Assembly: GCA_963514005.1 (NCBI GenBank)
Contig: OY740806.1
Coordinates: 22,196,001 to 22,260,000, forward strand
DNA length: 64,000 nucleotides
From: Raja brachyura
Lineage: Eukaryota
Reading direction: 5' to 3'
Below the pieces are notes generated by a model. It searched no databases, had not been told where the DNA came from, and saw only the letters and a list, made by a program, of their open reading frames with translations. Position numbers and translations under genes: made by a program. Below are positions 8,923-62,177 of the stretch, one piece after another (the stretch's first letter is position 1; every line of letters starts with the position of its first letter).

Positions 8923-9062
8923 NNNNNNNNNNNNNNNNNNNNNNNNNNNNNNNNNNNNNNNNNNNNNNNNNNNNNNNNNNNNNNNNNNNNNNNNNNNNNN
9001 NNNNNNNNNNNNNNNNNNNNNNNNNNNNNNNNNNNNNNNNNNNNNNNNNNNNNNNNNNNNNN
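8923..9062. other. Assembly gap (140 N)
   Basis: Run of N between repeats. Confidence 1.
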
Positions 9063-12198: not shown

Positions 12199-12210
12199 TG
12201 AGTCACTCAC

Positions 12211-23877: not shown

Positions 23878-24178
23878 TTAGATTTTAGAATTTAGAGATA
23901 CAGCGTGGAAACAGGCCCTTCGGCCCATCAAGTCGGCATCGACCAGCGATCACCACATACACTTCCACCATCCTAAACACTATGGACAATTTACAATTTT
24001 CAGAAGCCAACTAACCTACACACCTGTACATCTTTGGAGTGTGGGAGGAAACCAAAGTTCTCGGAGAAAACCCATGCAGTCACACAGAGAAGGTACAAAC
24101 CCTGTACAGGCAGCACTCGTAGTCAGGATCAAACCCAGGTCTCTGGAGCTGTAAGGTGGCATCTCTACCACTGCGCCA
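23878..24178 (-). mobile_element. V-SINE (HE1-like)
   Basis: Same head, V-domain and tail structure. Confidence 0.88.
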
Positions 24179-25394
24179 TTTTAAGTGACTATATTGTAAC
24201 TAGTTTTTCTTGATTGTGACTCTTCCAAGATGCACTGGGCTTTGAATGCTGACTTTCCCAGCGGTAGGTTCACAAAGAAAATATCTCTCGTCCTGCTGCA
24301 AATCATCTATTTATTGGTATTAAATATGTCCCCTTCCAATTTCTTGACTATATGGTTACAAAATGTCTTGTTCCTGCTGCTGCAGTGCACAATTAGTGCC
24401 CCGTCAATAAAGGATAGATGGATTGAGCAGATAAATGGCTTAATCAGAGGTGACTTTCTTTTTCTATATTTTCTCTTGCTTCGAACAGAAATGCGCATTT
24501 ATGGCAAAATGGCTTCAGGTTCCAGCTTCACAACATCTCGGGCACGGTTCATGATAAATCATGCTGAAAGCAATCTTTGATGGGGTCAAATGTACTAATT
24601 AATGAGGAACTGATAAATGGCTGCATCTGCGGAAGGGAATGTATTGAAGTTCTATCTTCAAGGCCTGAATTAAATATGTGCAGCCAGGATGTGATCAATG
24701 GGCACATCGAAGGATATGTTGTCATTATGACTAAATTCTCATGGCAACCTGCCCCGAGACGGAAAATCAAACATCTCCGATGCCATTTAATGTTATCTCA
24801 GAGACATACTGTATCAAATGGTCAATGCAGGATAGCTATTTCACCTTTTATGTCCCCTCCATCGTTCAACAAGACCATGGCTAATCTTTTACTTCAGTGC
24901 TACCTTCCTGCAGTAATAAAAAATCCTTTCATTTCCCCAATATGCCTGAATCTACCAATCTGTGCCTTGATACAGTCAGTGACTAAGCTTTCACTGCTCT
25001 TTTATGTAGATAATTGAAAGGATTGACTAAATTCTGGATGAAGAGATTCAGTGTCCTTTCAGTCTGGAAGCTCCAATCCCTTAAGTTGAGATTTTGACCC
25101 TTGTTTCTGGACACCGCACTATCCCAGCATCTCTCTTACAAAGTCTAAAGGAAATGTGTACAATAGGATCATCTCTTATTCTTCTAAACTCTGGAATGTA
25201 CAGGCCAGTCTATTTATTCCTGCTTGGGATAAAGCCTACCGTTCCAGAAATCAACTTTGTGAGCCTTTGTTGAATTGCCTCTTGTGCGAGTACATCGGTT
25301 CTCAGGTAAGGAGACCACGTGTGTAAATGATATTCAAAGAGCCGTCTCATAAGGGGTTGATATATTTGCATTAAAACATTTTACCCTTGTGCTC

Positions 25395-25507
25395 GAGCCG
25401 AAATGTCACCCATTCCTTCTCTCCAGAGGTGCTGCCTGTCCCGCTGAGTTACTCCAGCATTTTGTGTCTACCTTCGATTTAAACCAGCATCTGCAGTTCT
25501 TTCCGAC
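25395..25507 (+). mobile_element. Half-copy of the Penelope-derived short element
   Basis: Begins in the hammerhead stem (gccgaaatgtcaccc). Flanked by ttacccttgtgctc / ttactcttgtgctc. Confidence 0.75.
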
Positions 25508-25640: not shown

Positions 25641-25920
25641 CTTTAGACTTTAGACAAACAGTGTGGAAACAGGCCCTTCGGTCCACGGAGTCAGCGCTAA
25701 ACAGCGATCACCCTGTACACCAGCAACATCCTATATACTAGGGACAATTTGTAATTTTACCAAAGCCAATTAACCTACAAACCTGTACGTGTTTGGAGTG
25801 TGGGAAGAAACCGGAGCACCTGGAGAAACCCCACACAGTCACAGCAGATCGTGCAAACGCCATACAGACAGCGCCCATAATCAGGATCGAACCCGGGTCC
25901 CTGGAGCTGTAAGGCAGCAA
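25641..25920 (-). mobile_element. V-SINE (HE1-like)
   Basis: Intact B box GGTTCGATCC on the minus strand; V-domain present. Confidence 0.88.
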
Positions 25921-28900
25921 CACAATCTCTTCCCATTTAAAAAAAATACTTTTCTATTTATTTACCAAAATGGATAACCTCACATTTCCCACACTGTATT
26001 CTGTCTGCCATTTCCTTGTCCATTCACACAGCATCTTTATATTTCTCTGAAGCATCTCTACATCCTCTCAAAACCTATACAAGCACCTGGCTCAGTACTA
26101 TCAGACAACTCAGATATATTAAGTATGATCCTTATATCCAATTCACTGACTCCGTTTTGAGCAGCAGAGGCCTCAGCACTAATCCCGGCAGCCCCCCTCC
26201 CCCCCCCCTCCCCACTAATCACAGCCAATATGAAAAAGATTTGTTTATCCCAATCCTTGGTTTTTTCTTCAACAACCAACCCTTCCATGCAAGAGAATAC
26301 TCCAGTTCCATGAGTGCTAGTTGTTAAGTCATGTTATTTGTGACATCGTGTTGAAGGCTTTCTAAAGGTCCAAATACACCACACCTACAGATTCTCCTGT
26401 ATCTATTCCACAAATTACAAATCAGATAAATTCTAACAGATTTGTCAAGTTGATTTTCCTTTCATAAATCCATGCTGACTCTGAATATTCTATGATTTTC
26501 TAATTGCATTCTTAACATTTCAAAACAATATATTTCCATCAAAACAATATATTGTTCCTTACATGTTCCGTACAAATGACGTAAGCCTCTGTGGTCAATG
26601 ATTCTCCATTCATTTTATCTCCTCTCTTTGATTATGGGGTTATATTTGCTATATTTTAATCTTTATGCACCGTTTCAGAATCTGCAGAAATGCTAACCAC
26701 TGATTCCATTAACTTCATTGTCAACTCTTTCTCAGGTCTCAAGTTCTGGAGATTTATTAAGCTCCAGCCTTATTAATTTTTCCAATACCATTTTTTGACA
26801 AATGCTACTTTCCATCAGCTCTTCTTTCAAAAAAGGCTGTACTTCACAATTCCTAGGAGGTTTCTTGAGTCTTCCATGAAGACTTACACAAAACATTTGT
26901 TTAGTTTTTCTGCTGCATCCTTATTCCTTGTGTAACTTCTTCTAATTTCACTTTGTCAATGAACCGCATTAATTTATCTTCACATATTGATTGAACCTCT
27001 CATGGTCTCTTTATATGCTTCTCACCAGAATACTTATATTCCCTGATAGAATAGTAGAAGTTGAATGCTGCTGCTTGACCGGTGCTGGCAAAACCATCTG
27101 CAGTTTTCAATGTTGGTGAGGTGGGTTTTGATATCTCTGTCATTCTTTTGCACCCCCGACAGCATGAATGTACTTTGAGATGCGCTTTCCCAAATCATTT
27201 TCACAAATCAGAACCCATGTCTCTCTTCATACCTTTCATTAGCAGCTTGAAAGTATAAAAAAGCTGCACACAACAATATGAACATCTCTATTTGTTATTT
27301 CTCCCTAATTGGGAAATGGGACACGGTGATGGTCAACTGAACCTGATGCATTGGAGGAAATGCGGCCTTGGCAGTCTTTTCTCTCTCTCGTTGAAGCCTT
27401 GCGCTCATACACTTTCAAGAGCTGACAGCAGCCAATACTCAACCTTAACATTAATTGCTAACAGTTCTTTCCCTATTTATTTTCTTTGCAGCACACAAAG
27501 AGACTTTCCATTAGACAAGGAGCTGAAAGAGGACAGTGACAATATGGACACACCATCATGATTTATTGATTGGTGCTCTACTTGGCTGGAAGGGTCTGAA
27601 TACAAAAAAATAACTAATACTTGTCCTCGGGGGTACAGATCAGAAGCTACATAACTGGTGAAAAAGATGTGAATGAAATCTCAAAAGATGCAGCACACAG
27701 AACATTAACATGACTGAGTGACACTGGTTCCATGGATTGACCTAAGTACCCTTGTTTCCCTATTAAAAGAGGCCGATCATGTGAAATAAAGAAGCTATGT
27801 GGACATCAGTCCATGTCCAAAGGTTAGGTGGCCTCAATTTCTCATGCCTACATGATGTTAAGACTACCAATGCTATGTTGAGGGTGTTCCTGCACCATTA
27901 ATACATGGCAGATATAACTCCAATTTGTGGATATCTAAATAGATTAACTTGTTATGCTCTATCATCCAGAAGACCACTGACATTCACCAAACTTATATGT
28001 GAAGGTATGCCCCTCTATCAAAACACTAAATAGCAGCCACCTGTTGAAACTTACTCCAGAAACAGGTAATGCACACTAAAGGGAAGAGAAAAGCAACAAG
28101 AGTAGAAAAATGGCCTGTTAGAGCGAGACCTACCAATCATACAACATCAGGGTTACTAACCAATGATCTGTGTTATGAACCACACTTTTTGTTATTTTAA
28201 AGCTTTTGAGAATTTCACAAAAATGTAACTATTTATGCATCACCTTTTATGACTAAGTTTGGATCAAACACAATGCTTAGAGTTCAGTCATTAATTTCCA
28301 GCAAGGAAGGGACAGTGTTTACAATACCCAGAAGTTGAATCTGTTGGTATTGAAAGAATATCTGGCTGGATTCAAACTAATTGCACTCATTCATTTGTTA
28401 GCTAGCAAAGGAGAGAATGGTGCATGTACATTTATATGTACAGTTCATTCTTCTTCACAAAACTATCAGATACCTCATACATCTGCAGTGCCGGCAGTAA
28501 AGATGTACAATTGAACAAATGAAATATAAAGACAAAGCATGCAATTATCAGTTGGCACACATGCAATTAAACAAAAAAAATCAGCGCTAGTAACAAACCA
28601 GTTTCATTGTAGGCGGCAAATTACAAAAAAAAATCTGTCATTATCTTGACTCCTGTCATAGCACCGGAGTCATAATCGTTTATCTGTTTGGCTTTGTTTC
28701 AAAGCGTTTTTCAGACGTGTAATTAACGTGTCCACTCTGATTTCATTACATAATGCGAGTTAATTGTTACTTAATCTTAAGGATGGGCTGCTGTTGCTTT
28801 CACAACTTTGTAGCCTTTAGACAGTACTGAAAAATGTCTCTCACTTAAAATGAAATAGGACACTGACATAACATAGTACAGACTGGATTACCAAGTGGGC

Positions 28901-29964: not shown

Positions 29965-30295
29965 TCATATAATCATTGGAACCAGGCCATTCGACCCACT
30001 GAGTCCATACTGACCATCAGACACTCATTTAGACTGATGCCATTTTATACATTCCCATCAATACACCCTCAGATTCTACCACTCATCTACACACCAGGGG
30101 CTATTTACAATGACAATTATCTATCCACCTATATGTTTTTGGAGTGTGGGAGGAAACTACGATTACCCATGGGGAAATTCATGCAGTCACAGGAAGAACG
30201 TGCAAACTCCACACACACAGACTGCACTGGAGGTCAGGATTGAACCAAGGCTGCTGGAGCTGTGAAGCATCAGTTCCACTGGTTGCACCACTGTG
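29965..30295 (-). mobile_element. V-SINE, older
   Basis: ttggagtgtgggaggaaac...gaacgtgcaaactccacac V-domain. Confidence 0.8.
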
Positions 30296-33220: not shown

Positions 33221-33545
33221 TTTAGTTTAGTTTAGGGACACAGCATGGAAACAAGCCCTTCGGCCCACTGAGTCCATGCCAACCATCGATCACTAGTTCA
33301 CGCTACTTCTATGTATTCCACTTTTGCAGTCACTCCCTACACATTAGGGCTGATTTATAGAGGCCAATTAACCCACAAACCTGCACTTCTTTGGGATGTG
33401 GATGGAAACCGGAGAAGCCGGGGGATGTCCATACGGTCATAGGGAGATCATACATACTCCACACAGACGTTCCCGAGGTCAGGATCAAACTGGGGTCTTT
33501 GGTACTCCACAAGCTGTGCCATTGTACCCCCCCATGTTGTGCCAC
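33221..33545 (-). mobile_element. V-SINE (HE1-like)
   Basis: (TTTAG)n tail and V-domain. Confidence 0.85.
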
Positions 33546-35975: not shown

Positions 35976-36284
35976 TTAGACTTTAGACTTTCCAGTTACA
36001 TAATGGAAACAAGCCCTTTGGCCCACCAAGTCCGCACCGACCAGCGATCACCTCGTACACTAATACTATCGTACACACACACACTAGGGACAATTTGCAG
36101 AAGCCATTTAACCTGCAAACCTGCACATCTTTGAAGTATGGAAGGAAACCCTAGTAATGGAAGTTATCCCTATGCGGTAACAGGGAGAACGTACAAAATG
36201 TACAGACAACACCCATAGTCAGGATCAAACCTGGGTCTCTGGCATTGTAGGTGAGCAACTCTACCACTGCGTCACTATGCCGCC
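35976..36284 (-). mobile_element. V-SINE (HE1-like)
   Basis: Head ggcggcatagtgacgcagtggtagag and V-domain. Confidence 0.85.
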
Positions 36285-37342: not shown

Positions 37343-37576
37343 ACACAAAAATGCTGTAGAAACTCAGCGGGTGCAGCAGCAGCATCTATGGAGCGAAGGA
37401 AATAGGCAATGTTTCGGGCCAAAACCCTTCTTCAAACCCTTCTTCAGAAACCCTTCTTCTGAAGAAGGGTCTCGGCCTGAAACGTTGCCTATTTCCTTCG
37501 CTCCATAGATGCTGCTGCACCCGCTGAGTTTCTCCAGCACCTTCGATTTTCCAGCATCTGCAGTTCCTTCTTAAAC
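37343..37576. mobile_element. Palindromic Penelope-derived short element with a minimal hammerhead motif
   Basis: 14-bp TSD AAGGAATTATAATT at 37329-37342 and 37577-37590. About 100-bp inverted arms. CTGAAGA...GAAACGTT at 37459-37486. Confidence 0.85.
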
Positions 37577-37995
37577 AAGGAATTATAATTGTTTGAAAAT
37601 AGACAGACTTTCATACACCACCAGACAAAGACAATCTATTCCCATGATCACCCACATAGAGGATTGGCCTCCAAAAAAATGATAATGAAAAAGGTCCATC
37701 TCCTCCAAGATGGTAAAAAAAGGAGGTAATCTTTGGGGAGATCTCCTGTTCACTTTACTTTGGAAGATGGTTGAGTAACCTGTTGTGAGTTCTTAAGCTT
37801 CCCAGTCAAATCTCTCTGCTTCAGCTGATTCTGCCATTAAATAATGAGAAAATCAACCAAGTAGCAACCAATGTGCGCCCAGTGACTGTTCCACACTGGT
37901 TCTAGGTTGCACCTAGGGCTCCAGTTTATCTCCGTAAGGGCAGAAATGGGCTTCACATGAATCACAAACCTAATGTGCGTCCGAAGCTGGAGAAG

Positions 37996-38938
37996 GACAA
38001 GGGAATTGAATGCAACATCTCCAAGTTTGCGGATGACACTAAGCTGGGGGTAGTGTTAGGTGTGAGGAGGCTGCAAGGTGACTTGAATAGGTTGGGTGAG
38101 TGGGCAAATGCATGGCAGATGCCATATAATGTGGATAAATGTGAGGTTATCCACTTTGGTGGCAAAAACAGGAGGGTAGACTATTATCTGAATGGTGGCA
38201 GATTAGGAAAAGGGGAGATACAACGAGACCTGGGTGTCATGGTACACCAGTCATTGAAAGCAGGCATGCAGGTGCAGCAGGCAGTGAAGAAAGCAAATGG
38301 TATGTTAGCATTCATAGCGAAAGGATTAAAGTATAGGAGCAGGGAGGTTCTTCTGCAGCTGTACAGGGTTTTGGTGAGACCATACCTGGAGTATTGCGAA
38401 CAGTTTTGGTCTCCAAATTTAAGGAAAGACATTCTTGCCATAGAGGGGGTACAGAGAAGGTTCACCAGACTGATTCCTGGGATGTCAGGACTTTCATATG
38501 AGGAAAGACTGGATAGACTTGGCTTGTACTCGCTAGAATTTAGAAGATTGAGGGGGGATCTTATAGAAACGTACAAAATTATTAAGGGGTTGGACAGGCT
38601 AGATGCAGGAAGATTGTTCCCGATGTTGGGGAGGTCCACAACAAGGGGTCACAGTCTAAGGAAAAGGGGGAATTCCTTTAGGACCGAGATGAAGAAAACA
38701 TTTTTCACACAGAGAGTGGAGAGTCTCTGGAATTCTCTGCCACAGAAGGTAGTTGAGGCCAGTTCATTGGCTATATTTAGGAAGGAGTTAGATGTGGCCC
38801 TTGTGGCTAAAGGAACCAGGGGGTATGGAGAGAAGGCAGGTACAGGATACCAGCCATGATCATATTGAATGGCGGTGCAGGCTCGAAGGGCCAAATGGCC
38901 TACTCCTGCACCTATTTTCTATGTTTCTCTGTTTCTAT
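37996..38938 (+). mobile_element. CR1 LINE, 5'-truncated (ORF2 RT C-terminus and 3'UTR)
   Basis: ISKFADDTKLG, RPYLEYC.QFWSP and LYSLEFRRLRGDLIE motifs; (TTTCTATG)n tail. Confidence 0.96.
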
Positions 38939-41577: not shown

Positions 41578-43967
41578 TAAAGGATGTGACCATCCTAGTA
41601 CTTAAAATTGGATGATTGCAGCAAGATCTTCTGTGGCCATAACATATTGGCTGCAAGTATGAATTCCTCCAAATAATTACAAATTTACGAACTCTAGTGA
41701 TTAGCTGGTATTTTGGTATATGGTCAATAAAGGAAGGCTTTGACTATGTTGACACGCATGTTTCCTCTTCTAGATCTTCTTTGGGTTACCTCAGTTCTCC
41801 ACAAGCATCAGAATTTTACTTTCAAAACAACAAACGAGTAATGTATGTGCAGTGAAGAAATTCTGATCATATAATTTCCTTTCTTTCGTGCAGATGAAAA
41901 TGCTTGGCTGAAAAGTACAATTGTTCCCAACAGGCCAGGCAAATGCGAATGGTTTGCACCTAAATGCAAGGGGCCAATGGACTGGATGGCAACAGTGTAA
42001 CTCGTCATCAAAGCCTCTACTGCACCTATAGACGTTAATTGCTTTGGAAGTTTGGATCGGAATATTCTTACGATGTTGGAAATGAGAACAAAAGGAATAT
42101 GGAGCTATATTTTTTAAAATACACATTTAAGGTGACCTTAAGATTAATTAAAAAGCAAATATCACGTTTCACTCTAAAAGGAAAGGTGTATTTGTTGGTG
42201 GGGTAAAACGAGGAGACATACTGCTTCACTTCCAATTCATTTGGGAAAAGTTCTTGGATTAGCTTTAGGAGACATTTCAGTCACTGAATAAATTGCAAAT
42301 ACACTTCCATTTGTAAAACAAGACATTAATAATTTAGCCTTTTGCAAGAAGCCACATCATATTTTACATTGATTTGGTATGGTTTGATTTGTATATGATG
42401 GAAATTATTATTAGATTAGAAATGTCTATTTGCAAGTTTGGTGCACAAGTGCTTACGATCTTTACATTCAATTTCTATTGCACTAGATATGCCAACTGAT
42501 TTGAAACAAATGAATTATTACCTCTGTTAAAATGGGAAATGGTGGATGACAGTGGAGTGTACATGATGTTCTTAGGTTAATGTGGCAAACAGTAATTTCT
42601 AGGATCGTTAACATTCACAAGAAAGTAAAAACACAGAATATAATCAAAACTGATGGTGATTTCAATGGTGACCTATCACCGATTATCATGGTGACACTGT
42701 AATTACATGGGACATATGCAATTAATGCTACAATATCTGAGCAATATCATCAACACAGAAGCTTTTCATGAAGGACATCTGAGAGCACTCCCTAGGTGAC
42801 ATTAGTCACTATAACAGTGAGGCTGCTTCCCTGTGATTCCCTGCTCCTCCTCATCCTGCACTGTTTTGAAGATATTTCCTAACTATTCCCACTGTGGAAA
42901 CGCTGAAAATACTCAGCCTTTTTATTACTTGAGAAGTAACTGAGTTTGAATGCAATCTCAGGGCATAAATGTTGTCTAACAACCTAAAAAAAACCTATTA
43001 TTTCACATGGTATGTCAGTCCCTCCGGTAAAATTGCAAACTATTTAAAATTATATAAAAAGTTGAATTTTTTATTTTTTTTTGGTTTATATCTTAACCTT
43101 TCATAGAGTGTGAAATAAAGTTTGAAATCTTGCATGGGAGGTTAATAATTTAATCAAACGCTATTGCCGATAAGCCATCCCCAATCAGGATGGTGACATT
43201 TGCTATATAGTGGTGGCTATGTGGTTGATTTTGCTTCCGAAATGTAATCTCTTTTATTCAATTGAATGAATTTTGAGGCAGGGTGCAATGTGCGGATGCT
43301 ACTATATGATGCATTTGAGGCGACTGTCCAAGGCTGAATTTCTTGGCATTTGGTGTTTCCACTTTCCGGTTTGCTATGTGGGGGTTTTAGTTACGTGAGT
43401 GGCTAGTCAGTGATGACATCACTATGGCTAGGTACAGGGAATCCCCCAGAGGTGAAGTCAAACAGCAACTGATGCCAGCAGAGGCTAAGTTTGTGTCTCA
43501 GAGATTCTGAGATATTTATTCCAGGTTTCTTTGAGATCAGTAACTAGCCCATTCCTTCTAAGGTATTAATGCCATAAACAATGGGCGTTGTTTCAGGTTG
43601 TCAATGAAATGATCTATACAACCGTTTCCTTTCATTGAGCGCTTCAAATCCTGACATATATTACATGTGAATTTTGCCCAAGAGGTTGACAACATTATTC
43701 CAATGATTTACATTTATATTCGATCCGGATCCATATTTAGAATCTTATGCAGCTGTGGCATCACTAGTTTATTTTCAGGGGTCCTTTCCCTCCAAATGTA
43801 GGGAGCAGCTCTATAAATGGTAGCACTGTCAAGATTTATGCACACTTGAAAGAAAAAGGCAATTATGCTGGAAGACAGGAATTCCACAATAAACCAATAA
43901 TACTTTTAGTGGCATGGAAGTTGGCTTTCCAACTGATCTGGTTCAACATTCAGTATCAAATACCTAC

Positions 43968-45644
43968 CCTGAAGTAGATAAGTGTGAAGGTGGGTGTTCA
44001 AAAGGAGGACTGTCTTCACCTCTCCACCTTTGGGAAGGGATCTGACTATAAAACTCGCTGTGGCCTGTTGCAGGAGAGAGGGATCCTGTGTAGCTGCCTG
44101 TTGAAGGTGTCAGTGCCATGTGAGGTCTATAACTGGGGCTTCCTCGTCTGCTGCCCTGGCCAGCAGTGCTGCTTTGTGCTGGTGAGGAGGATGGTGAGGA
44201 CCTTCTGGATATGCTAACAACAGCAGGAGGCTGAAGGGTAATTTCAGACATCTCCACAGAGATGCCTGCAGGAAAGATGCCACGGGAAGGCTGCATGATA
44301 CTGGGCCGTGGTCGCGGGCGGGATGAGATCTCTGGGGAGGCGTGATGGGAACTCAGAGGACTCTGACTCAAAGGGGAGAGCCGAGAAGGCTGTAGAACCA
44401 CCTGGTGTAAACTGGCCTCAGTCCTTCTGCCTTGCCTAGGGCTAGGTCTGGGCCTGGGTCTTGGTTCGTACCACCTGGTGTCCAGACTGAATGTGCTTGT
44501 GCCACTGGCAACAGCCTGTCTGGCTGATTCAGTGTAAGGCAATGTGGGTGCACTTATACCATGGCTGGTATGCTTTAGCTGCCCGTGGCTGGTCTCTTGC
44601 ATAGGTTGATGTGGATGTCTTTGAGAGAGAGAGGCAGATCCTTTAGATTTACTGGAAGCTTTGCCAGTCTGACTCTTTGGTGCCTCCAGATGCAGCACAC
44701 TGTGGTACGGTGCTGAGACCTGGAGTGAGGAAGGGGGCCCACCCCTCGGAAGACCAGCCTTTGGCAGTGTACTCTCAGGTGTATCTTGATGGTGTGAGAA
44801 CATAACTGGAGAGCTCTCAATGCTGCTGATAGACAATTTCTTCCTTCTCCATGGTTCAGGAGACCGCATGGTAGTTGGCGTGTGAGTCAAAGGCAGGGTA
44901 CTACTGGAAGTGACCAAATGCTGTCCATCAGGATCGCCGTGATCTGCAGGGAGGGTGGGATGACCATAGGGTCCTTCAGCAAGTAATAGAGGTGAAGACA
45001 TCACTGAACTGAGGGGACTGATATCTGGCATGTAAAATGGCTGACCATCTTGGTCTGCTGAGCTACTGCTGAGGTAGCCATAAAACTGGCTTTGAGGGTA
45101 ACCTTTAGCAAGTCTCCTGGTCTGACCGGTGGCCTGCAGCCTGGCATCTAAGCTTCCCATGCATTCATCTGCATTCTGGAATGATGGGGTGTATGCTGGT
45201 GGCTGTAAGTATGAATCTTGACTGGATGAAAGAGGTGAAAGCTGAGACTTCAAGCTCATAATGGCAGTAGGAGTTAATGTGTCATTGTTTTCCTCGTCGG
45301 ACTGCCGGAATTCAGGATACGTTTCCGTCTCTTCTGCAAAGGGGAAGCCCTCAATCCTCCTAGACTTCAATGATATCTCCATCCCTGTGTGGTCCATAAT
45401 GAAGCGTCCATCAGGGCCTCTGCTGATCAGTTCGATGGGGGTAGTGACATCAGCCTCAGCCTCATGCTTGGAGACACTGTACTTCTTGCTGGTTATTGCT
45501 CGCTTTGTCTTTTTGTACAAGGACATTTCTCTGTCCCTGCCAGGACTCATCATCTTGGCATGTATGGCTTGAGCATCTTCAGAGGAGTCTGATGGAGCTC
45601 GGAGTGTCCTGACGCTTTCAGGACTCACCTTTCCTGAGGAAGAT
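43968..45644 (-). CDS. IGSF9B: IGSF9B large cytoplasmic exon (SSSGKVSPES...TTPIELISRGPDGRF...HLSTSG)
   Basis: 554-aa Ser/Pro-rich ORF with the conserved IELISRGPDGRF motif. Acceptor ggtctctcag|, donor GG|gtaggt. 1677 bp, phase 2 to 2. Confidence 0.96.
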
Positions 45645-46395
45645 CTGAGAGACCAAAATCAGAGGCAACAGTAACCCTGCATACTTTCATGTTTACAATT
45701 TTGCTACTGTCCAGTGAAGTAAAGCATCACTTTATTGCTTTTGCTGCCATTATTCATTAATAACAAGTCCTTTTGACTATTAATTTAATGTCATCAGTTA
45801 TGAAGCTGTGGCAGTTGGAATACATCTCATGAAGATAGGCCTCATTTGGGGAACATTTAATCAGTTATGCAACTATATTATGAATATAATGCAATTTAAA
45901 GTAATAATGAGGGAATTTATAAGTTGATTAATACTGCCAACTGATGCGTGTTTTTACAGCAATAGGATACCAGAGCGATAATGGAGCGGTGAATTAATGG
46001 CACTTTGGTGCGTTGTGTATAGAACAGACAACTATTCTGTTTATGGAAACATAATTCTTCAAGCTACTGCAGATTAAAGATTTAAGAACAAATCCTCCAG
46101 TATCCTGTAGGAAAGCTGTAAATTACATACAGATTTATGTTCTGCTTTAAAATTTAGTAGGATCTATGCGACTAAGGCTGCCAGTTCACTTACAATCAGC
46201 ACAGTCAGAGACATTATAGTATAACCACTTTATTGGTCTCTTTTATTGATTGTAAAACAAAGTCTACTGCTAGTCTGACATGGATCTTACACCAAAGTTT
46301 GGCTCTCATCGCTGAGAGAATGAGTCAAATCAACCACATTGATTTATCACAAGACACAAACACGGACAAAATCATAAAAGGGGCTGGTTACTTAC

Positions 46396-46441: not shown

Positions 46442-48293
46442 CTGGAGGAGAACAAGCATGCGCATTAAACAGCTAGAAGGGAATCAATTCACTTAATATT
46501 AGAAATAACTTTCACACAAAAGCATGGCCGCAGCCCAGGCACATCAGAGTTATCATATTGAAATAACCTCCTGTGATACAATACAAGGGGGTTGATCTCA
46601 GTGACGGATAGTAGAAACAAGCTGGCAGTTTATCGTTCACCTCTGCAGATTTTTATTTCCATAGGGAGGAGATGAGGTGTTTCAGTGCCATAACATTTTA
46701 GAGCTCTATGATATACAATGGTTCATATAAAAATGAACACATTGAGGTTTGCTAGCCGCTGCATTGTGCCAATGCTTTCTTTGGCACAGCATTTTTTCTC
46801 TTATTTTTCCCAGTAATTAGAAAATTAAATATATGAGGTTCTGTTTTTGGCACAATGAGCTTCACCCTCATTATGCCTCTTGCAGTTAAGTACATTTCAG
46901 ACTAGATTTGTCAGCTGGCAATGGGATTTCTATGTAAAAGAGGTTTGGGTAATCTCATTTTTCACGTGAGTTTGCCACAGTGCAAAGTGGCACCTATTTT
47001 GATATCAAATGGATGTCCTCATTTTGATGGACTGCATGGAGTCAGAAAAATAAAATATCTCCCAGCACTGTTCAAAGGGGTCCCTCTAGTTGGTAATAAA
47101 ACACATCATACAGGGTTTTGCACCTAATCTGTCTGTGAGTTATTAATGCTAACACCAAATCACAGATTCTCACAATACATTATGCCATTAAATATGAATG
47201 TGTTCACATCAACAGGAAATAACTGATTGGAAGAGCAACTTAAGTTGCTGAAGTGGGACAGTTCTATTTCACAGGTCAAATACTCTTCAACTGTATGCAC
47301 AAGTCATCATCAAACAGAGAATTAAACCTTGATTTCTTCTCAACATAATTTTGGCATTCAAGTGAAGAATAATAACTGCGAGTACACATCATTCTGTGAT
47401 GAGAGCTCAAACACATTGTTTTGCCAGTAACAAGATGTAAGCAGAATTCATATAGTTTGAACATGGCGTACAAAATATTTAATTACCTCAGAATCCCTCA
47501 GTGTATTGAGTGAAATATAATAGTTACAAACAACTTATTTTCAATATCACGAGCTATGTAGCTAGTCTCACTTGCATGGAATACACACATCATCCATATT
47601 AAATAGATATCAAGGTTTCAAAATAAATTCAGGTACAGCTCGTATTGTTTTCCCGCATCAAGCCTATTTTATTGAATCTCACTGTCCTGGCACTGAACAG
47701 GGTTTTTATTATGTACCTGGATTCACCATGAACCATATAAAATAGTAAGATTAAACGAGAACTTACCAGATTGAAGTTTGATCTTTATTTTATGAGGAGT
47801 TGCGATGAGGGATTTCGTGAAGAACCCGCCAGCACGCATGCGCGACATCTCTTCAAAGCAGCGGTGTGGAATCACAGAACCAACAAACCAAAGAAATGAC
47901 TTGTTATAGTAAGATTGAAGAGACTCTAGTTACCAGTTGACTTTATGATCGAGGGTTGGGAGCGGAGGGCACGAAATCCCTCATCGCAACTCCTCATAAA
48001 ATAAAGATCAAACTTCAAACTGGTAAGTTCTCGTTTAATCTTACTATTTCATTTCGGAGTCACGTGAGTGACTTCGTGAAGACTTCAAAGCTCTGTGATT
48101 ACACGCCCTGGACCACGTCCATGCTCACACACTGCCGTAATACTGATGGAGGAAGTATGTTAACGTATTTCAGACTTGAACAAGCTGAAAAATAATAACA
48201 TTATTGTTAGTACAACAATAAACCCCTGAACTCGGGGACAAACGTTTAGGGACAGCACTTAACGTGCGTAACGTTGCGGGAAAAGGCCACAGG

Positions 48294-48720
48294 TTAGTTA
48301 TGAAACCACTGAAATGTAGTTTCATTGGCCCAGCCCGCTATCGTGAGGACATGCTCCATGAACACCTCCATGGTCCTCGTTCCTGATGTGGATGCAGCCT
48401 TGGTAGAATGACATTTCAAAATGTTTAGTGTCTTACCTGCTGCATCGAATACCACCTTAAGCCATCTGGAGATAGTCTGCACCGTCATTCTGTGACGTGG
48501 GTTTCCATGGGTGACAACAGATCCCATTTCCACACCTGTAGTCGCAGGTCTGTATAGTTTAAGTAACTCTTTCATAAAGCAGTTACATTATTATGGGTTG
48601 ATCATTCTATCCAGGTTTAATTCCTGTAGAGTCTGGACCCGTTGTGCTGTATTCAGTGCTATTGCCATCACCACTTTTGAAGGTGAGTAAGTCCAGTGGT
48701 ACCTCCGTGATAAGCGACCA
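48294..48720 (-). pseudogene. DIRS tyrosine recombinase remnant (frameshifted)
   Basis: TISRWLK...HSTKAASTS...AGWANETTFQWFH resembles the YR HSTR...AGW...F..FY box with catalytic R and Y lost. Upstream LKVVMAIALNTAQRVQTL remnant. Confidence 0.85.
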
Positions 48721-49017
48721 CCTTCTGAGTAGGGTCAACACCACCCTAATCTCTCAGATATTATATCGTGGTCGGGAAGGGATGGATAGAACATATCCCT
48801 CGTAGTTTGGATACCAGCTGGTGAGATCCCACTCCGATGTTGAGCTAGGATGACAGTGCACTACTGGCACTGTATGCAGCACTGTAACTGAGGGCTCATC
48901 ATAATGAGCACATTGGAGATCGTAGCAGATATGTAGGTCATCTTGGTCCGACTACAAAATCCTCTCATATCCTGTGTAGGTGAGGTAGTGCTTCCCAGTG
49001 GACTTTCTCTGCATGAT

Positions 49018-49165
49018 CTATATGACGTCCATGGTCCTGTATGTTCCAGACCTGGGTACATTTTCTGCAACACCTGTCTGATGAGGCAGGATGGGGAAAG
49101 CATAGAAATCCATTTCCCCCAATGTAGCGAGAACTCGTCCATCGCCACACTTGGAGACCACATTC
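49018..49165 (-). pseudogene. DIRS methyltransferase-like (MT) domain remnant
   Basis: AMDEFSLHW and FYAFP...LIRQVLQK pieces in different frames resemble the DIRS DAFxxxW / YAFPP / LIxRVLxK motifs. Confidence 0.7.
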
Positions 49166-49584
49166 TGCAGTTTCTCCTGGGTTTCCTCAGGTACTACAGG
49201 TTCCTCCAGAACTGGAGGACATCTGGTCCAGCTGCAGAGACTGTGCTCTAGTATACGCTCCATCATGCGCTCCATCCGAGCCATGCGACCACTGCCGCAT
49301 CTGCGGACAATAAGTCGACTTCCTCAGGTTCTGGAGAATCTCTGAGGCTTCTGTCATTGCCCCACACCTCGTCGAGGTGATTACAAGGGTGCAAGACAGG
49401 ATGTCGCTGCCTGCCGCTCCTGCGTGGCTAAGCGACTCCCGCGCGGACCTGCCGCTGCTCCGCCGTCTTCCGGACGGAGGCGGCCCGCTGGTCTGATAAG
49501 ACATGATAGCAGTGGTGAGTCGGTCCCGGCCGCCGAAGCGTGGTACCCCGACGTCCGCGCGGGCTTGCCGCCTGTCCTCCAAAG

Positions 49585-49806
49585 GCGACGTTCGGTCACG
49601 TCCTCCACTACAAGGCAGTGCGATGACCGAGATGAGACTACACCGACCTGCAACCAGGCAGGCTCCCTCGGTGCTGAGTCTGTGTCCTCCTTTGGGACAA
49701 AGCGTCGTTCGTTCACGTCCTGACGCTAAAGGGGGTGCGGTGACCGAGATGAGGCTACTCCGACCTGCAACCAGGCAGGCTCCCCTCGGTGCTGAGTCTG
49801 TGCCGG
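49585..49806. repeat. Two-copy ~117 bp tandem repeat inside the DIRS element
   Basis: gaccgagatgagrctacwccgacctgcaaccaggcaggctccc(c)tcggtgctgagtctgtg occurs near 49626 and 49742. Confidence 0.9.
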
Positions 49807-50112
49807 CCGCACATGTGGTCCTCCAGACCCAGGCCTCAATCCTTCCCCGGTCCACGATCTGGTGGCCTGCTCCAGTGGAAGTTGACCCCGGCTCTATGGC
49901 GGGTTTACCGACTGCTGTGCGATACTTCCCCTGGTCCTCTCTCTGGTGACCTGCATATTTGGGGAGAGAGAACGTGCCAAGAATATAGCACGTTACGCAC
50001 CTTTGCTCCACTGTCGCTATGGTTAAGTGACAGAGGTAGGGAGTCAGGGTCTTACCTACCCTGCTCCTGTGCGGTTACCACTTATGGCACCATGGTCAGT
50101 CGTGGTGGAGAA

Positions 50113-50830
50113 TCAGGTCCTGACTGCGCAGGGCTCCCCTGATTTCCGCGTTTTTATCCCGACCCGCAGAGCGGGTGCTGCCGACGTTGCGGGCAGCTCC
50201 AGGAATGGTGGGCGTTGACTCACATCTGGAGGCACCGGTATGTAGGTCCTTGCTGGCCTTCCGGTTTGACCCCGTGGCCTGGAATATGGAGTTTTCCTGG
50301 CCGTTTGTCTGGTCAAGGTGTGCGACCTCATAAGACCCACTGTCTTGGCATGGTCGTCTAAATCCTTGACCTGCTTCAGAAGGTCTTCCCCGAATAGTTG
50401 TCTGGGTGGTGGTGTTGGAGATGCTCTGCATAGCCCCGCAAATTTGGGATTTAGCGTGAGCTTGATGGCACTTTTTCGAAACGCATTTATTTCGTATTGC
50501 GTGTTACATAATAATTCAAGAGCATCCTCCTGTTCGGTGTTCAAGTCCATCCCGTCCACCGACGTCGCAAAAGCGGTAATCCCAGATGTGAGCAGTTTTA
50601 GGATTATCTGTAATTCTTACTTCCTGTGCTCTTATGCCCGGGCTTATATTGCTCCAAATAGGCATGTTTACAATAGGTACATTGAGTGAGTTACAATTAC
50701 TCGGTGCCTTGCACCCATTCATGGCCTCCGCAAGGACCTGATCCTGTAGCTGGTGGTTGGTAGCGGCCAGTTTAGTTTTGAGAGGTTGTCCCGATGATTC
50801 GGGTAACGCAAACTTGGCTGCCACGTACAA
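50113..50830 (-). pseudogene. DIRS gag-like ORF, frameshifted
   Basis: PSNCNSLNVPIVNMPIW and EINAFRKSAIKLTLNPKFAGLC...LFGEDLLKQVKDL resemble DIRS1 gag as recalled. Confidence 0.75.
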
Positions 50831-52150
50831 AAGTACTTACCTGAGGAACCTCAGTTGCCACTGGTTCGTGTGCCAAGATATCCTCTTCTCCTGGCTGCCT
50901 CATGCTACCAATTGACGGTGGGGATATATCCAAAAGTTCCCGGAACTGGACATTTCCTGCAGTTGATTTTGCTGCAGGATCCGTTCCATCATCCTCTCCA
51001 TCCGTTCAATGCGCCCTTCATGGTGCGTAAATGGGAGGTCAGAGCCCTCATGCCCGAAGGAACTCCTGAGGCTCCTATCATCGGCCCGTACCTCATCGAG
51101 GTAATCTCGGTGCCGTGACAAAAATCGCTGCCAGCCGCCTCAGCGAAGCTGTACGACTCCCGCGCGGATCTGCTCATACGCCTCCTTGGATGAGCTAGGC
51201 CCGACTGCCTCAAAGGGCATATGCGGTGTGAAGTCGGCACCTGACGCCTGCGGCGTGGCGACCCGACATCCGCGCGGGCTTGCCACCTGTCCTACTCCTG
51301 GACTCAGGCGGCGTACGGTCCCGTCCTGCCGCTATAGGGGGATGCAGTGACCGTGGCGAGACTCCACCTGTATGAATCCACCTGGTCCAATTAGGTGGTG
51401 AGTCAACACTGGCCCTCCCTGGTCTGCCAGTGGACTCGGGTCTCGGTAAACCACCAGTCCGCAATATAGCGGTCTCTGGTGAAATTCCTGCCCTAAAAGG
51501 GCTTTGTTGTTGAGCTCTATCCCTGGCTCTTTCACGAGGGCTCGGGGAGAAGGGCCGTGCAGCAGCACGTGAAACCCGTTTGCTCATATCAGCCAATGAT
51601 TCTCTCCCTGTTGGAGATAGTGAAAAAATGGAGTCAGGGTCTACCTGCTCCGGCGCCATACCGACTTCCTGCTCTGCGGGTACCCCGCTTGTACACAGCT
51701 GTGTCGGTGGGTCGGGTCCTGTAATCACAGGGCTCCCCGACTTTTGCGCCTTTTCCCCGGCCCGTCTAGCGGGTGCTGTCGTTGTAGAGAGCTCCGGGAA
51801 TAATGGCCGGCGATTCCTTTTGGAAGTCCTGCGGCCTGTACTCCTCATTATCCATGTCCCTGTTGGAGAAAACACATTCAAAACAGCAGGGACAACCAGC
51901 TCAAGGTTGCCTGTACTTACCTGAGTGGCCCTTATGAAGGGCTGGTGGTGAGCTGTCGTTCTGCCATTGTTGAGCAATGGTGAGTGTTGAGCCCGGACCC
52001 ACAGGGTCAACAAGTTGCCCCATTGTAAAAATAAGTTGGGCTTAGAGACAACATGATAATGGCTGCAACTCCATACCCTCTAAATTACAGCACTGGGATA
52101 ATGCAGGCTGTGTAGAGTTGAGTTGGGGCTAACCCCTTACTCTTAGTAAA

Positions 52151-52650
52151 TGCCGACAGCCCGCAGAATCGTGTGGGCTGCGGTGTAAGTCGGGCTGCTG
52201 CTCTGCCATTGCTAACTGCAAATGGCGAGCCTGCAAGCCCCTAGTTATAAAATAACTGCCGACAGCTCGCAGTATCCTTGCGGCTGCGGTGTAAAATCGG
52301 GCTGTGCTCTGCCGTTGCTTACTGCACACGAGAGTCTGCAAGCCCCTAGTTAAAAATAACTGCCGACAGCCCGCAGTATCCTTGCGGGCGGCAGTGTAAA
52401 ATCGGTCTTATGCTCTGCCGTTGCTACTGCACACGGCGAGTCTGCAAGCCCATACTTCTTTAAAAATGCCGACAGCCCGCAGATCCTTGCGGGCTGTGGT
52501 GTAAAATCGGGCTTATGCTCAGCCGTTGCTTACTGCATACGGCGAGTCAGCAAGCCCCTACTTACTTATAAATGCCGCCAGCCCGCGACCTGCGGGCTGC
52601 GGCGTAGAGTCGGCTGCCTCTGCCGTCCTCCGCCGGCGAGTGTGAACCCG
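52151..52650. repeat. Tandem array of five ~105 bp GC-rich double-hairpin units in the DIRS 5' leader
   Basis: Units start at 52151, 52257, 52361, 52467 and 52573 (TGCCGACAGCCCGCA...CAAGCCCC). The fifth is more diverged. Confidence 0.92.
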
Positions 52651-53034
52651 GACCTACCTGGGTCAACGGGCTCTCCCGACTCCATGTACTAGAGCCGCCG
52701 CTGACTGCCCGCATACTGCGGTCCGCAGTCAGTGTTGAAGCGGCCTGGAGTACTCTGAAAACAGAGACCCTGTAAGAAAAAACGGACGGCGGGTTAGTTT
52801 TCCACTTACCTGCAGGTCCAGCAGTGGAGGAGCAACGCTCCTCCCTGCCCGTCTGTCGCACGCGCGTCGACGATATGGCGCGCATGCGTGCTGGCGGGTT
52901 CTTCATGAAGTCACTCACGTGACTCCGAAATGAAATAATGTAGATGTCTCCTTCATGATGTTAATCAAGTGCTTAAGCGCAATTTCAGAGTAACATTGCA
53001 AAGAGTTCCTATGCATTTCACTTTCTCCTATAAT

Positions 53035-53216
53035 CTACTTAGAAAGGGATTGGTGATGTTTGGAAATGAATCCTCAATTTATTTTATTTAAAAAAAATTA
53101 AAAATAAATAAAATTCTATGGATGTACGGAAACTTAATTATTTCTTCCATGTAAAGCACTTTGGTTTCAACGCGATTTGATGTAAGCGCGCTATATAAAT
53201 ACAATTTACTTACTTA
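53035..53216 (+). mobile_element. L2-like LINE 3' end
   Basis: tgtaaagcactttg...gcgctatataaat followed by a (TTAC)n tail. Confidence 0.55.
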
Positions 53217-53756
53217 ATGACTGGAGGCCTGAGACAGATAGGAGGTAAATATTGTAAAAATCCACCTATGGCCATTCTACAAATTACAAAGGGAATGCTT
53301 TCCTGGAAAACATTTCATACCACACAAATGTTGTGTGCAGAATGTATTGACGGGATTTTTGGACAGCGTTTTCCTATACATGTAACGAGGTATGCTACTC
53401 ATTACAGTGAAAATTAGATTTGTAAAAGGAGAGTTTGTAAATTGAAGAATGCTTGTATTGTGGAATGATAAGAACGCTCTAGTTCATTTGGCATCAGTCA
53501 AAAATCCCACGCTGCCTTCATGATCGTCACTTGAGAAACCTCTCCGGGTATGCAGAACTGTGGGGGTTTTTTTGAAGATAGACCCAAAATGCTGGAGCAT
53601 GACAGGCAGCATATCTGGAGAGAAGGAATGGGTAAGGCTCTGGGTCAAGACCCTTGTTTTACTGCAGTTGGCCAAGCAAAATGTTCCATAATAATTCTGG
53701 GGAGTAAGGGTTTATGATCTCAGTTCTTCACCTGATTGCTGACCCCAACCAGGGGG

Positions 53757-53975
53757 AACAAAGAACTGCAGATGCTGATTTATACCAAAGATAGATACAA
53801 AGTGCTGGCGAAACTCAGTGGGTCAGGCAGCATACCTGGAGAAAAAGTATGGGCGATGTTTCGGGTCGGGCCTGGGTCGGGTCCGAAGAAGGGTCCCAAC
53901 CCAAAACATCACCCATCCTCTTTCTCCAGAGATACTGCCTGACCTACTGAGTTAATCCAGCAGTTTGTGTCTATC
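53757..53975. mobile_element. Palindromic Penelope-derived short element (degenerate hammerhead)
   Basis: gaactgcagatgctg...ccgaagaagggtcccaacccaaaacatc...tttgtgtcta with inverted arms. Confidence 0.75.
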
Positions 53976-54789
53976 TTTACTACAAAAATGCGGGTCCCCA
54001 TTGACTTCCCCAGTAACCAACTGTGCTGCAATCGTTCGTTCATTGGATCTTGCCTTTACTGAGCAGATGTCCTGCTGGATTAGTTCTTCGTGTGGAACCT
54101 GATATTATGCTGGCTGTGCCTGACCTGTTGTATCACATGTAAGTGGTGCTGGAGCCTGATATAACTGGCAATCTTTTACAGTTCCTGCTAATCCTGATCG
54201 ACTAAATGCTGTGCAAAAGACCATCAAAGCCAATATTCCATTTGCCAAACACTGCAGGTTCAGCTGAAGTAAACAGTAATATACCCTTTAGATTATAATC
54301 AACACCGCAGATTGAAGATTCTGAAGCCATACTGGTTGATAAGGAAGGGGCCAATGCCATTGAAATATGGAATTCTTTCCAATTAATTTAATCAGTTATC
54401 GACATACTCAGAGCAATTTTGTAGAAATGCATTTTTTCCTAACAATGATATGTGTAAATGTGAAGTTAATGAGAAGATAAAGGAGTCGTTTATTGGAGGC
54501 TGAAATTGTAACTGACACAAATAAAGTGCATGTAGTTATTGGAGGTCAAGGGAGCAGTGCACACGTTCTGCCATCAACTGCATCATTTTCCAACTCCCTT
54601 TGCACATCAGGTTGATCCTGCTTGATGACACATTTCATACTGGCCTGATGACTGGACAACATGTTGGCTTGGGATGAGCAGTGACAATATATAAAATTGT
54701 ACAAAAATGTCAACATCAACATCATAACAGAATCAAACTCTGTCACCACTAACCCCTCAGGGTGATCACTAACGTAAAGGCCAGATGGA

Positions 54790-55452: not shown

Positions 55453-56195
55453 CATGGTGAAGGTAACTTGATCTGGATCTGCGTTACTTTTTGGTCTTCA
55501 TCTGCTCCAAAATCCTAAAATTCCTAAAGTAATATTGTTACCAAGCCACCAAAAATGGAAGATGGCTCAAAGGTTTAAGGAATGGGTTCACCACCACTTT
55601 CTCAGAGTAACTAGTTAATAACATTAATAAATGTGTCCCTGCCAGAACTTCCTATATCCAAGAACAAATAAGGAATATAAAACATGTGGGGAATGGATCC
55701 ATATTACCGATGTACTAAAACAGTGAGCTGTAATAGTGTGACTATCTTTGATTTAGTCATACATGCCTCGTTTCGGAAAAAATGAACAATTCTTCTCTCT
55801 ATTAAAAATGTTCACGTAAAAAAGGTTCTTTGGACTTTCAAACAGGTGCTGAGATATTTAGTCTCTTCAAGAAATCTTTCTTAGCTACAACATTAAGATT
55901 TAATGGATGAGCATTGACTGTGATGTAAACTGGTATTTATTCTCAGTTTACACATTCAGTTCATACAGCCTGATCTTTGATAAAGTGCTGGAACTGATAA
56001 AGTGCAAATTCTGAACGCAAATATGATCTCATAAGTCCAACCTAACTGTTTATGTAGGGAACGTTGTCATCAGAGTGAAATAGTAGAGCAGAAATTAATT
56101 TGTGTTAAGAGATTTCAAATCTCTAATTATAACAATAATAACAATTTTGTTCTTTTTCCTCTTCTTCGCCTCCTCCTTCCGTCATGTCTGAGGAT

Positions 56196-56587
56196 AGAAA
56201 CATAGAAACATAGAAATTAGGTGCAGGAGTAGGCCATTCGGCCCTTCGAGCCTGCACCGCCATTCAATATGATCATGGCTGATCATCCAACTCAGTATCC
56301 CGTACCTGCCTTCTCTCCATACCCTCTGATCCCCTTAGCCACAAGGGCCACATCTAACTCTTTCTTAAATATAGCCAATGAACTGGCATCAACTACCCTC
56401 TGTAGCAGAGAGTTCCAGAGACCCACCACTCTCTGTGTGAAAAAAGTCCTTCTCATCTCGGTCCTAAAGGATTTCCCCCTTATCCTTAAGTGGTGACCCC
56501 TTGTCCTGGACCTCCCCAACATCGGGAACAATCTTCCTGCATCTAGCCTGTCCAACCCCTTAAGAATTTTGTAAGTTTCTATAAGAT
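56196..56587 (-). mobile_element. CR1 LINE 3' fragment, same young family as 37996-38938
   Basis: LIETYKILKGLDRLDAGRLFP... and an (ATAGAAAC)n tail on the plus strand. Confidence 0.95.
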
Positions 56588-60399: not shown

Positions 60400-61636
60400 C
60401 TGACAGAGGGAGGAAATAAAATGTCCACTTTTTATTCTGTTATCTCTGATACGCATTTTCTCCTTACTTGTTCTTTAAGTAGAACCATAATTTTCTACAA
60501 GGATAAATCATCCCTTTTGCCTGTTAACATTTGAATCACCACTGCAAACATGAAAGGACACAGAGTTTAATGTTTAGAGTGCATTACTGGGGCGGGTGGG
60601 ACTAATGTTTAGCATGAGCAACTTGGGGTGAAGGGCCTGTTTTCATGCTTTAAGACTCTATGATTCTATGCTAGTTATGATCAAACAAGGACCCCACCTG
60701 CAATCACCTGCCCTCCTGCCATTGTTTACACCCATTGGAGTGCATTGACCAAACTGTGTTTTGATTTCTGCTCCATCCAGCGTCTTCCATCTCTCTCCCA
60801 ACCAGAACTCGACGACCTCTGCATTTACAGAGAGCCTTTCATCTTTGCAGAATGAGGAGTCCTTCATCTTATCATACATTGTGGTTTGATCTCATTCAAA
60901 TAGTTAATCCATTGCACTAAAAGCATTGTAAAGTTTAGCCTTCCAAGGTGAAAGTCAAGGTAAATGTTCACCTTGATGCTTCGGTAGTAATGGGGAAGAG
61001 GAAACCAGTCTCCCGCCCAATGTTCATTCCATTCAAATTATTAGAATTAAACTCAGTCGGGATCTGTAATGTGTTCACACTGCAATACAGGTCCCTGAGA
61101 TTAAAATGTGCCATATGACCAGAGAAAAAGACTCTATCAAGAGTGTATACCACAGCATTCCACTGTCTAATTGGTGGGTTCAGTTAAAATGGTGCATCTG
61201 TTTAACATATCATGGAACGCGGGGTGGACCATGCTTAGGCCAACACCAGCTGAGGAGAGGCTGAGTGGTTACTCCACAGAGTGCAGGAGAGTTCCTCCAA
61301 GCTCTACACTTTCCATGTTTGGCCCACAGCTATTGTTGTTCCCCAAATAGGAATTACCTTCTTATGGACAAAAGACCAGGAAGTAATCCCTAGATGTGAT
61401 CACGCTGTCTATATGATACCGAAACACATCATGGCCTCTCCACAAGGCTACCCTGCAATTAGCTTGAGATCTGTTCTTGGGCACTAGGGAACCTGCTGCA
61501 TGGTATTATTGGCCCAGATAAATTGATTAAAGAAACCAGGTCCAGCATTAACAAATTACAGGTTTAGTCTAACACACCCCCACCCTGAAAATGGTGATCA
61601 ATTACCTCATGTCAATATACTCTTTCGTGGGACCAG

Positions 61637-61812
61637 GGAACTGCAGATGCTGGTCAATACACAAAATGATACAGTGCCAGAATAACACAGCAGGTCAGGC
61701 AGCATCTCTGAAGAACATGGAAAGGTGACATTTTGGGTCTGAAGAAAGGTCTCAACCTAAAACATCACCTATCCTTGTTCTCCAGAGATGCAGCCTGACC
61801 TGCCGAGTTAGC
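61637..61812. mobile_element. Palindromic Penelope-derived short element (degenerate hammerhead)
   Basis: Same family; ctgaagaaaggtctcaacctaaaacatc core. Confidence 0.7.
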
Positions 61813-61950
61813 TTCAGTTTAGTTTATTGTCACTTGTACCAAGGTACATTGAAAAGCTTTAGTTGTGTGCTGACCAGTGAGCAGAAAGAAAGTACTCCAG
61901 CACTTTGTGTTCTACTAAGTCTGTTCAGTAGCTGCTCGACAATGCCTTAC

Positions 61951-62177
61951 CAGAGATAACTCCTTGGTCAGCAATTCGGTTTCAGTGCCAGGTATTGCTT
62001 CATCTAAAATCTCCCACCGTTCTCCCAGACGGAACTCCATGATATAATGGCTGATCGGATAGCTATGGTTGGCTGGTGTAAGCCAAGACAGCAATACTCC
62101 TTGGTGTGTTCGATTGGCTGTTAGGCACCTTGGTGGAGAAAGCAGCACCAGTGGTTCTCGGGTGGTTATAGGGAAAG
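61951..62177 (-). CDS. IGSF9B: IGSF9B coding exon, second FN3 domain N-part (AFPITTREPLVLLSPPRCLTANRTHQGVLLSW...TKELSL)
   Basis: Peptide resembles vertebrate IGSF9B FN3-2 as recalled. Acceptor ttcactctttcag|, donor CTG|gtaagg. 227 bp, phase 1 to 0. Confidence 0.95.

Follow-up and report, generated by a model that had tools for sequence, protein, structure and literature searches.

The 64,000-nt window analysed here (Raja brachyura, contig OY740806.1, positions 22,196,001 to 22,260,000) contains on its minus strand, at 47740-52937, a DIRS1-type retrotransposon of 5198 bp (~5.2 kb). It is probably one copy of a non-autonomous DIRS1-type family, whose RNA is copied by an autonomous DIRS element, whose ends are rebuilt during copying, and which the recombinase of the helper integrates at TATTT. 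The element is DIRS1-like by its ends and by the remnant of its tyrosine recombinase (YR), and it is not an autonomous member, as no reverse transcriptase (RT)-RNase H region was found and the YR is broken, including its catalytic residues. DIRS1 identity and loss of autonomy had both been proposed in a sequence-only reading of this DNA, and the layout of the termini and of the internal complementary regions (ICRs), the broken YR and gag, and the missing RT support that proposal. The coordinates of all features are collected in Table 1.

Termini and internal complementary regions

The element is delimited by two inverted pairs, which are exactly as described in the sequence-only reading. Positions 47740-47819 are the reverse complement of 47970-48049 with one mismatch in 80 bp (at 47770), and 48045-48082 are the reverse complement of 52900-52937 with one mismatch in 38 bp (at 48076). 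The probability of an 80-bp inverted pair arising by chance within 64 kb is ~1e-32. For the mismatch at 48076, the left terminus has A, and both the ICR and the right inverted terminal repeat (ITR) have G, so the change, of the CpG type, took place in the left terminus.

The two halves of the ICR overlap at TATTT (48045-48049), which is also the first and the last pentamer of the element. In the sense of the element, the host junctions read CTACAT/TATTT and TATTT/TATATGG, and the ICR joint reads CTTAC TATTT CATTTCG. On either side of the pentamer, the host and the circle-junction sequences are different, so the common core is exactly 5 nt, in agreement with the earlier observation that TATTT joins the ends of the ICR and stands at both host junctions.

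This organisation corresponds to that of DIRS1-like elements. The ITRs include a divergent and a conserved part, plus a right extension; a 54-bp ITR at 85% identity encloses a perfect 25-bp core (47820-47844 with 52879-52903). Near the 3′ end are two ICRs, which pair with the two termini and overlap at the junction, and the junction core is present at both ends of the element, with no target-site duplication beyond TATTT. The segment common to both ITRs and both ICRs comprises 6 nt in three of the four, with 5 of 6 nt in the left terminus, and ~9 nt if mismatches are allowed, the yardstick for DIRS1-like elements being at least 10 nt. Split direct repeats of the PAT-like or Ngaro-like type were not seen, as no terminal direct repeats occurred among the largest 20 of 32 repeat families, and the ends are inverted.

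Remnants of the coding regions

The element has two gag regions instead of the single gag supposed earlier; gagA is nearly complete and is joined to the N-terminal half of gagB. Identity of gagA to protein P0001 is 72% at the amino acid level (319 of 445 aligned residues); the pseudogene contains six internal frameshifts and one 5-codon deletion but no in-frame stop, and its last ~45 codons are gone. The gagB region is 73% identical to gagA at the DNA level (635 of 875 aligned bases) and 48% identical to P0001 in amino acids, with ~4-7 frameshifts depending on the reference. The earlier statement that gag is broken is borne out by both copies. The joint between them (junction 1) appears from the alignment to span a short microhomology. 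It may have arisen by a template switch between families, by nested insertion and deletion, or from a parent with tandem gags. No paper among those listed by a literature search for two-gag DIRS elements mentions DIRS, which is weak evidence, most DIRS reviews being outside its reach.

The search with the gag core gave three matches among 766 candidates; the only named one is a protein of Leucoraja erinacea (61% identity over 59% of the query), in line with a cartilaginous fish as the host. The gag relatives P0001-P0003 have no Pfam domain; these regions are presumably gag by their position and because the longest contig listed has 5747 bases both for P0002 and for a member of the YR cluster. 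Hexamers fitting the splice-donor consensus are located on the minus strand at 50223, in junction 1, and at 50840, at one of the gagA frameshifts. They are likely to be there by chance, because the element strand has seven such hexamers and the other strand eight.

The reported absence of RT was confirmed. Three general RT motif patterns matched in none of the six frames of the element, and there is no room for RT and RNase H between gagB and the methyltransferase (MT)-like remnant. The deletion junction itself had been placed near 49165-49190, which is ~20-40 bases off, as similarity to the gag protein P0001 continues to 49144. A splicing origin of the deletion was considered, as CAG/G at ~49178 lines up with a donor-like site of gagA; it was rejected because gag similarity passes 49178 and reaches 49144, with junction 2 leading from the interior of gagB to the interior of MT.

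The YR pseudogene shares 136 of 241 aligned residues (56%) with P0010 (E 1e-31; Atlas score 0.96). It contains six frameshifts, three stops and a ~32-codon deletion at ~48522. The Arg of the HSTR motif and the C-terminal Tyr are catalytic residues of tyrosine recombinases; here the motif reads HSTK, with Lys for Arg, and the invariant Tyr286 reads His. Homologues of YR were found among none of the 138 candidates when the first piece was used as a query and among 2 of 175 with a longer piece. Of 19 fragments of the element, one matched Pfam, below the cut-off; PHROGs gave one weak match among seven proteins, and a PDB sequence search with the YR piece gave two chance matches. P0006, the lone HMMER match of the MT/YR frame among 1.84 billion representatives, is an unrelated repeat protein and was dropped. 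YR and MT had both been called broken. This holds for YR, with its frameshifts, stops and deletion, whereas the MT remnant is assigned by what we take to be the motif of the family, and no search confirmed it.

Uneven decay of termini and pseudogenes

The anatomy of the element, its broken open reading frames (ORFs) and the uneven decay of its parts are direct observations. The paired ends differ by two mismatches and no indels in 273 lineage-bases, or 0.7% (95% confidence interval 0.09-2.6%). At 200 sites of the gagA core, with P0002 as the outgroup, 17 changes are unique to the window and five to its intact sister P0001, which corresponds to an excess neutral substitution of ~3.7% (1.0-6.9%) in gagA; gagA and YR together have 14 indels in 2343 coding bases. 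With gagA as the substitution clock, the joint probability of such clean ends under decay in place is 0.009, with a Bayes factor of ~14. Decay also differs between the two pseudogenes. Conserved sites are changed at 27 of 82 positions in YR versus 12 of 97 in gagA (Fisher p=0.001), and there are 10 lesions in 731 nt versus seven in 1612 nt (p=0.017). Since YR is more decayed than gagA, a single clock for the whole copy does not fit. With YR as the clock, the probability of decay in place ranges from 1e-6 to 0.07 for an assumed functional divergence of 8% to 25%. The cis signals being younger than the coding lesions, as expected of a non-autonomous DIRS family, argues with moderate strength for such a family.

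At the mutation rate of 7e-10 per base per generation given for the epaulette shark in the accessible part of PMC10587355, the divergence of the ends corresponds to ~10 million generations, range 1-37 million, the rate being that of one shark species. The earlier description of the element as recently mobilised is overstated in this respect; “recent” here means merely later than the death of the genes.

Occurrence in sequencing runs and sequence collections

The distribution of the element was assessed by the share of sampled words of 47300-53300 in sequencing runs; the shares are not placed on the sequence and are thus silent on shared junctions. Of the 22 listed runs, 20 (12 organisms, 13 studies) carry 0.36-0.66 of the words. 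Half or more of the words are present in ten listed runs from six studies, or five studies without organism A, a possible source. Two listed runs of organism M carry almost none of the words, and no RNA run among those listed holds them. The predicted share is ~0.22 (point estimate) or 0.52 (lower-bound lesion density) for decay in place from intact parents, and 0.69 for a copy with 0.7% private change. For a single sample, runs of 3041, 1869, 1617 and 124 million letters gave shares of 0.66, 0.57, 0.54 and 0.56, with an intercept of 0.53. Such near independence of run size fits a multi-copy body with single-copy flanks, which make up 13% of the sampled stretch.

No locus was found with the ICR pattern in metagenome and viral contigs or with the gag alignment in three collections. 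The YR gave no loci in viral and genome contigs, and one scan returned a single related stretch. The claim that the element was copied in trans after its decay is supported by the contrast between clean ends and decayed ORFs and, indirectly, by the word shares, but not by the collection scans, where no related locus appeared.

Proposed propagation in trans and alternative explanations

In the proposed scheme, the lineage would have lost RT and RNase H by deletion, and its recombinase and both gags would have decayed, with the cis-acting parts kept, namely the leader with its structured repeats, the ITRs and the ICR. The RNA of the element would be packaged and reverse-transcribed by the proteins of an autonomous DIRS. 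Both termini would be rebuilt in each round from the ICR and the right ITR, which would reset their match, and the recombinase of the helper would insert the copy at a host TATTT, in this case in an apparent intron of an IGSF9-like gene. We infer that copying takes place in trans, that the element belongs to a family, and that a helper and a circle intermediate are involved. For DIRS-1, the accessible parts of PMC7192593 report that the ICR is indispensable and that RT supplied in trans works on a construct without gag, RT and RNase H. The same source describes mostly linear single-stranded cDNA and a circle junction that could not be amplified. The circle intermediate and integration by YR, referred to as established in the sequence-only reading, are still a model.

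Several points weigh against copying in trans. When substitutions alone are considered, the probability of the clean ends under decay in place is 0.04, rising to 0.06 without the post-hoc ITR core and to 0.13 for the far-apart pairs alone, and YR and gagA do not differ in indels alone (p=0.11). The gag clock leans on P0001 as its single sister protein, and for the YR clock there is no such control. The right ICR and the right terminus, located 150 nt apart, could be homogenised by conversion. The word shares could stem from intact parents or from a single orthologous copy present in closely related species, and neither a sister copy nor a shared junction or an empty site was seen.

These marginal substitution-only results leave some room for the explanation that an autonomous DIRS, or a nested pair, was inserted, lost its RT and decayed in place, the young look of its ends being due to chance or to local conversion between inverted repeats. 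Insertion of one DIRS into another followed by deletions could give two gags, self-insertion of DIRS-1 being reported in the accessible part of PMC7192593, and words present in many organisms would fit an orthologous insertion that is old, given a slow clock. This scenario is nevertheless unlikely. It is opposed by the low joint probability given above, by the unequal decay of YR and gagA, by a word share nearly independent of run size, and by the fact that three separate pairs, two of them spanning ~5 kb, are all nearly intact. Young ends and old ORFs would be explained equally well if a decayed source had given rise to one or a few copies in trans, with no self-sustaining family. However, the shares of words found in small runs and across 12 organisms point to many near-identical copies, though these are unplaced, and we regard a one-off event as very unlikely. 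It is hardly credible that the frameshifts are assembly errors and that the element is merely a deletion derivative. The six internal frameshifts of gagA with no stop do form an indel-rich pattern, but polishing errors do not account for the stops, the catalytic changes and the large deletions, and the ORFs at 43967-45658 (1692 nt) and 37906-38856 (951 nt) are unbroken, which has a probability of ~1e-7 at the indel density of the element. Both ORFs were chosen as the longest outside the element, which biases this test against assembly errors.

A more elaborate version of propagation in trans is rather doubtful. The element could represent a long-lived modular DIRS parasite common to many sharks, in which a 3′ half that is old and dead (gagB stub, MT stub, YR, ICR and right ITR) received a renewed 5′ half (leader and gagA) by a template switch with a younger autonomous family; the ICR would have rewritten the left terminus, and the hybrid would have stayed mobile. 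If this were true, that history would be written in the three degrees of decay (ends 0.7%, gagA ~4%, YR ~5-14%).

Table 1. Positions of the features of the DIRS1-type element and of dispersed repeats in the window
Feature	Position	Strand	Basis
Left terminus, starts with TATTT, pairs with left ICR	52900..52937	-	38 bp, 1 mismatch; junction context
Conserved left ITR core	52879..52903	-	perfect complement of 47820-47844
Donor-, branch-point- and acceptor-like splice signals, spacing of only 40 nt, may pair with sites elsewhere	52770..52809	-	motif scan
4.5 tandem copies of 106-bp unit, two hairpins per unit	52147..52613	-	repeat search and folding
Intron-like stretch, 61 nt, ends 4 nt upstream of gagA start codon	51860..51920	-	sequence and motif scan
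gagA pseudogene, nearly complete	50230..51855	-	matches residues 5-536 of 579 of P0002
Junction 1, gagA end joined in frame to ~codon 10 of gagB	50215..50235	-	alignment
gagB, N-terminal half of second, divergent gag	49144..50230	-	alignment to gagA and P0001
117-bp tandem duplication within gagB, copies ~88% alike	49568..49802	.	repeat search
Junction 2, loss of the gagB core, of RT and RNase H and of most of MT	49140..49152	-	gag similarity ends at 49144
Frameshifted remnant of C-terminal MT motif, probably cut again at ~49060	49060..49152	-	family motif (assumed)
YR pseudogene	48285..49044	-	similarity to P0010 (Pfam PF00589)
Left ICR	48045..48082	.	pairing with left terminus
Right ICR, overlaps left ICR at TATTT (48045-48049), circle-junction copy	47970..48049	.	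pairing
Conserved right ITR core	47820..47844	-	perfect complement of 52879-52903
Right terminus, divergent ITR and right extension of ~45-55 bp, TATTT at end	47740..47819	-	layout as in Table 3 of PMC3266345 (accessible part)
Copies of ~300-bp repeat	11901-12207, 23878-24184, 25641-25941, 30076-30273, 33221-33502, 35976-36284, 58095-58394		
Copies of MITE-like family	8530-8800, 9063-9178, 25391-25503, 37343-37572, 53570-53990, 61629-61818		

The 5′ leader

The leader of 1.08 kb combines splice-like signals, detected with the general splice-signal consensus, with the tandem two-hairpin repeats. All four of the 106-bp units folded gave negative z-scores (-3.2, -6.1, -1.8 and -5.5), and a compensatory change was found in one of the 29 pairs of their hairpins. 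The repeats are possibly a packaging or translation signal. A ribozyme was rejected, as Rfam gave no matches at the gathering score in the window; one sub-threshold SmY match is located elsewhere in the element. A further degenerate unit of the repeat lies at ~52571-52660. The intron-like stretch preceding gagA is recognisable in the off-frame N-terminus of P0004, a member of a distant family (12 of 20 residues identical, E 1e-4), and this likeness suggests that these DIRS elements have a functional intron in the leader.

Genomic setting

The DIRS copy appears to sit within an intron of an IGSF9-like gene transcribed from the same strand. The unbroken 564-codon frame at 43967-45658 (minus strand) has no Pfam match and resembles what we take to be the long last exon of IGSF9/turtle-family genes. 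On the other side, a fibronectin-III exon at ~61960-62140 (minus strand) matches PDB 1v5j, “KIAA1355 protein” (E 4.5e-11). The splice-like signals of the element point the same way as this gene.

The 317-codon frame at 37906-38856 (plus strand) has a weak RVT_1 match (E 0.005) and is presumably the 3′ part of a CR1-like long interspersed element (LINE). Segment 38558-38938 recurs inverted at 56194-56587 with 89% identity. A dispersed repeat of ~300 bp, with at least seven copies 68-78% alike, is probably a short interspersed element (SINE) or a LINE tail. The second dispersed family resembles miniature inverted-repeat transposable elements (MITE-like) by its long internal inverted repeats (92-nt arms, 82%, at 53779-53986). 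An assembly gap of 140 N occupies 8923-9062.

Relation to known elements and significance

The closest layout is that of LgDIRS1 and AcaDIRS1, which, in the accessible part of PMC3266345, share with the present element ITRs with a right extension only, a short conserved ITR, overlapping ICRs, an ATT-type core and the lack of target duplication. The ICR sizes are 38+80 here versus 39+86 and 45+88 in elements of that type, and the length of 5198 compares with a mean of 5160 for DIRS1-like elements with a short conserved ITR (PMC3266345). The common core is 5 nt versus 3 in LgDIRS1/AcaDIRS1, and those elements are autonomous, with gag, RT-RNase H-MT and YR, whereas RT and RNase H are absent here, both gags are broken and YR is dead.

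TOC1 of Chlamydomonas reinhardtii is likewise a non-autonomous DIRS-order retroelement, moved by the autonomous TOC3 according to the accessible parts of PMC5613634 and PMC9940879. It differs from the present element, which has the DIRS1 ITR/ICR layout and recognisable pseudogenes. TOC1 presumably carries split direct repeats. In Repbase names such as DIRS-N1, N stands for non-autonomous. The zebrafish DIRS-N1, which appears by name alone in the accessible part of PMC5400779, is probably a vertebrate non-autonomous DIRS family. The trDIRS-1 helper/donor construct of Dictyostelium also has no gag, RT and RNase H coding and is reverse-transcribed in trans, but it is a laboratory construct, for which the accessible part of PMC7192593 does not show the full cycle in trans. 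SIRE is presented in the accessible literature as a disputed case of a non-autonomous DIRS-order element; beyond a remark on SIRE/VIPER, the accessible parts of PMC8498967, PMC9210276, PMC6681497, PMC4350176 and PMC5753468 contain nothing on non-autonomous DIRS1 elements. No non-autonomous two-gag or hybrid DIRS1 and no shark DIRS family was found in a literature search that had Repbase and subscription reviews outside its scope. No title listed in the literature searches concerns the DIRS elements of sharks or rays, on which little seems to have been published.

Non-autonomous DIRS-order elements and the action of RT in trans are thus already published, and the element is probably a further member of that kind, which leaves the known picture of DIRS function unchanged. 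If confirmed, it would be a natural vertebrate case of the full DIRS1 cycle (gag, RT and recombinase) being supplied in trans, and it would mark out the cis-acting parts that are sufficient. In the two-gag joint, a past recombination between DIRS families would be preserved as a fossil, and the mismatch between ICR and terminus would provide a dating tool akin to the divergence between long terminal repeats.

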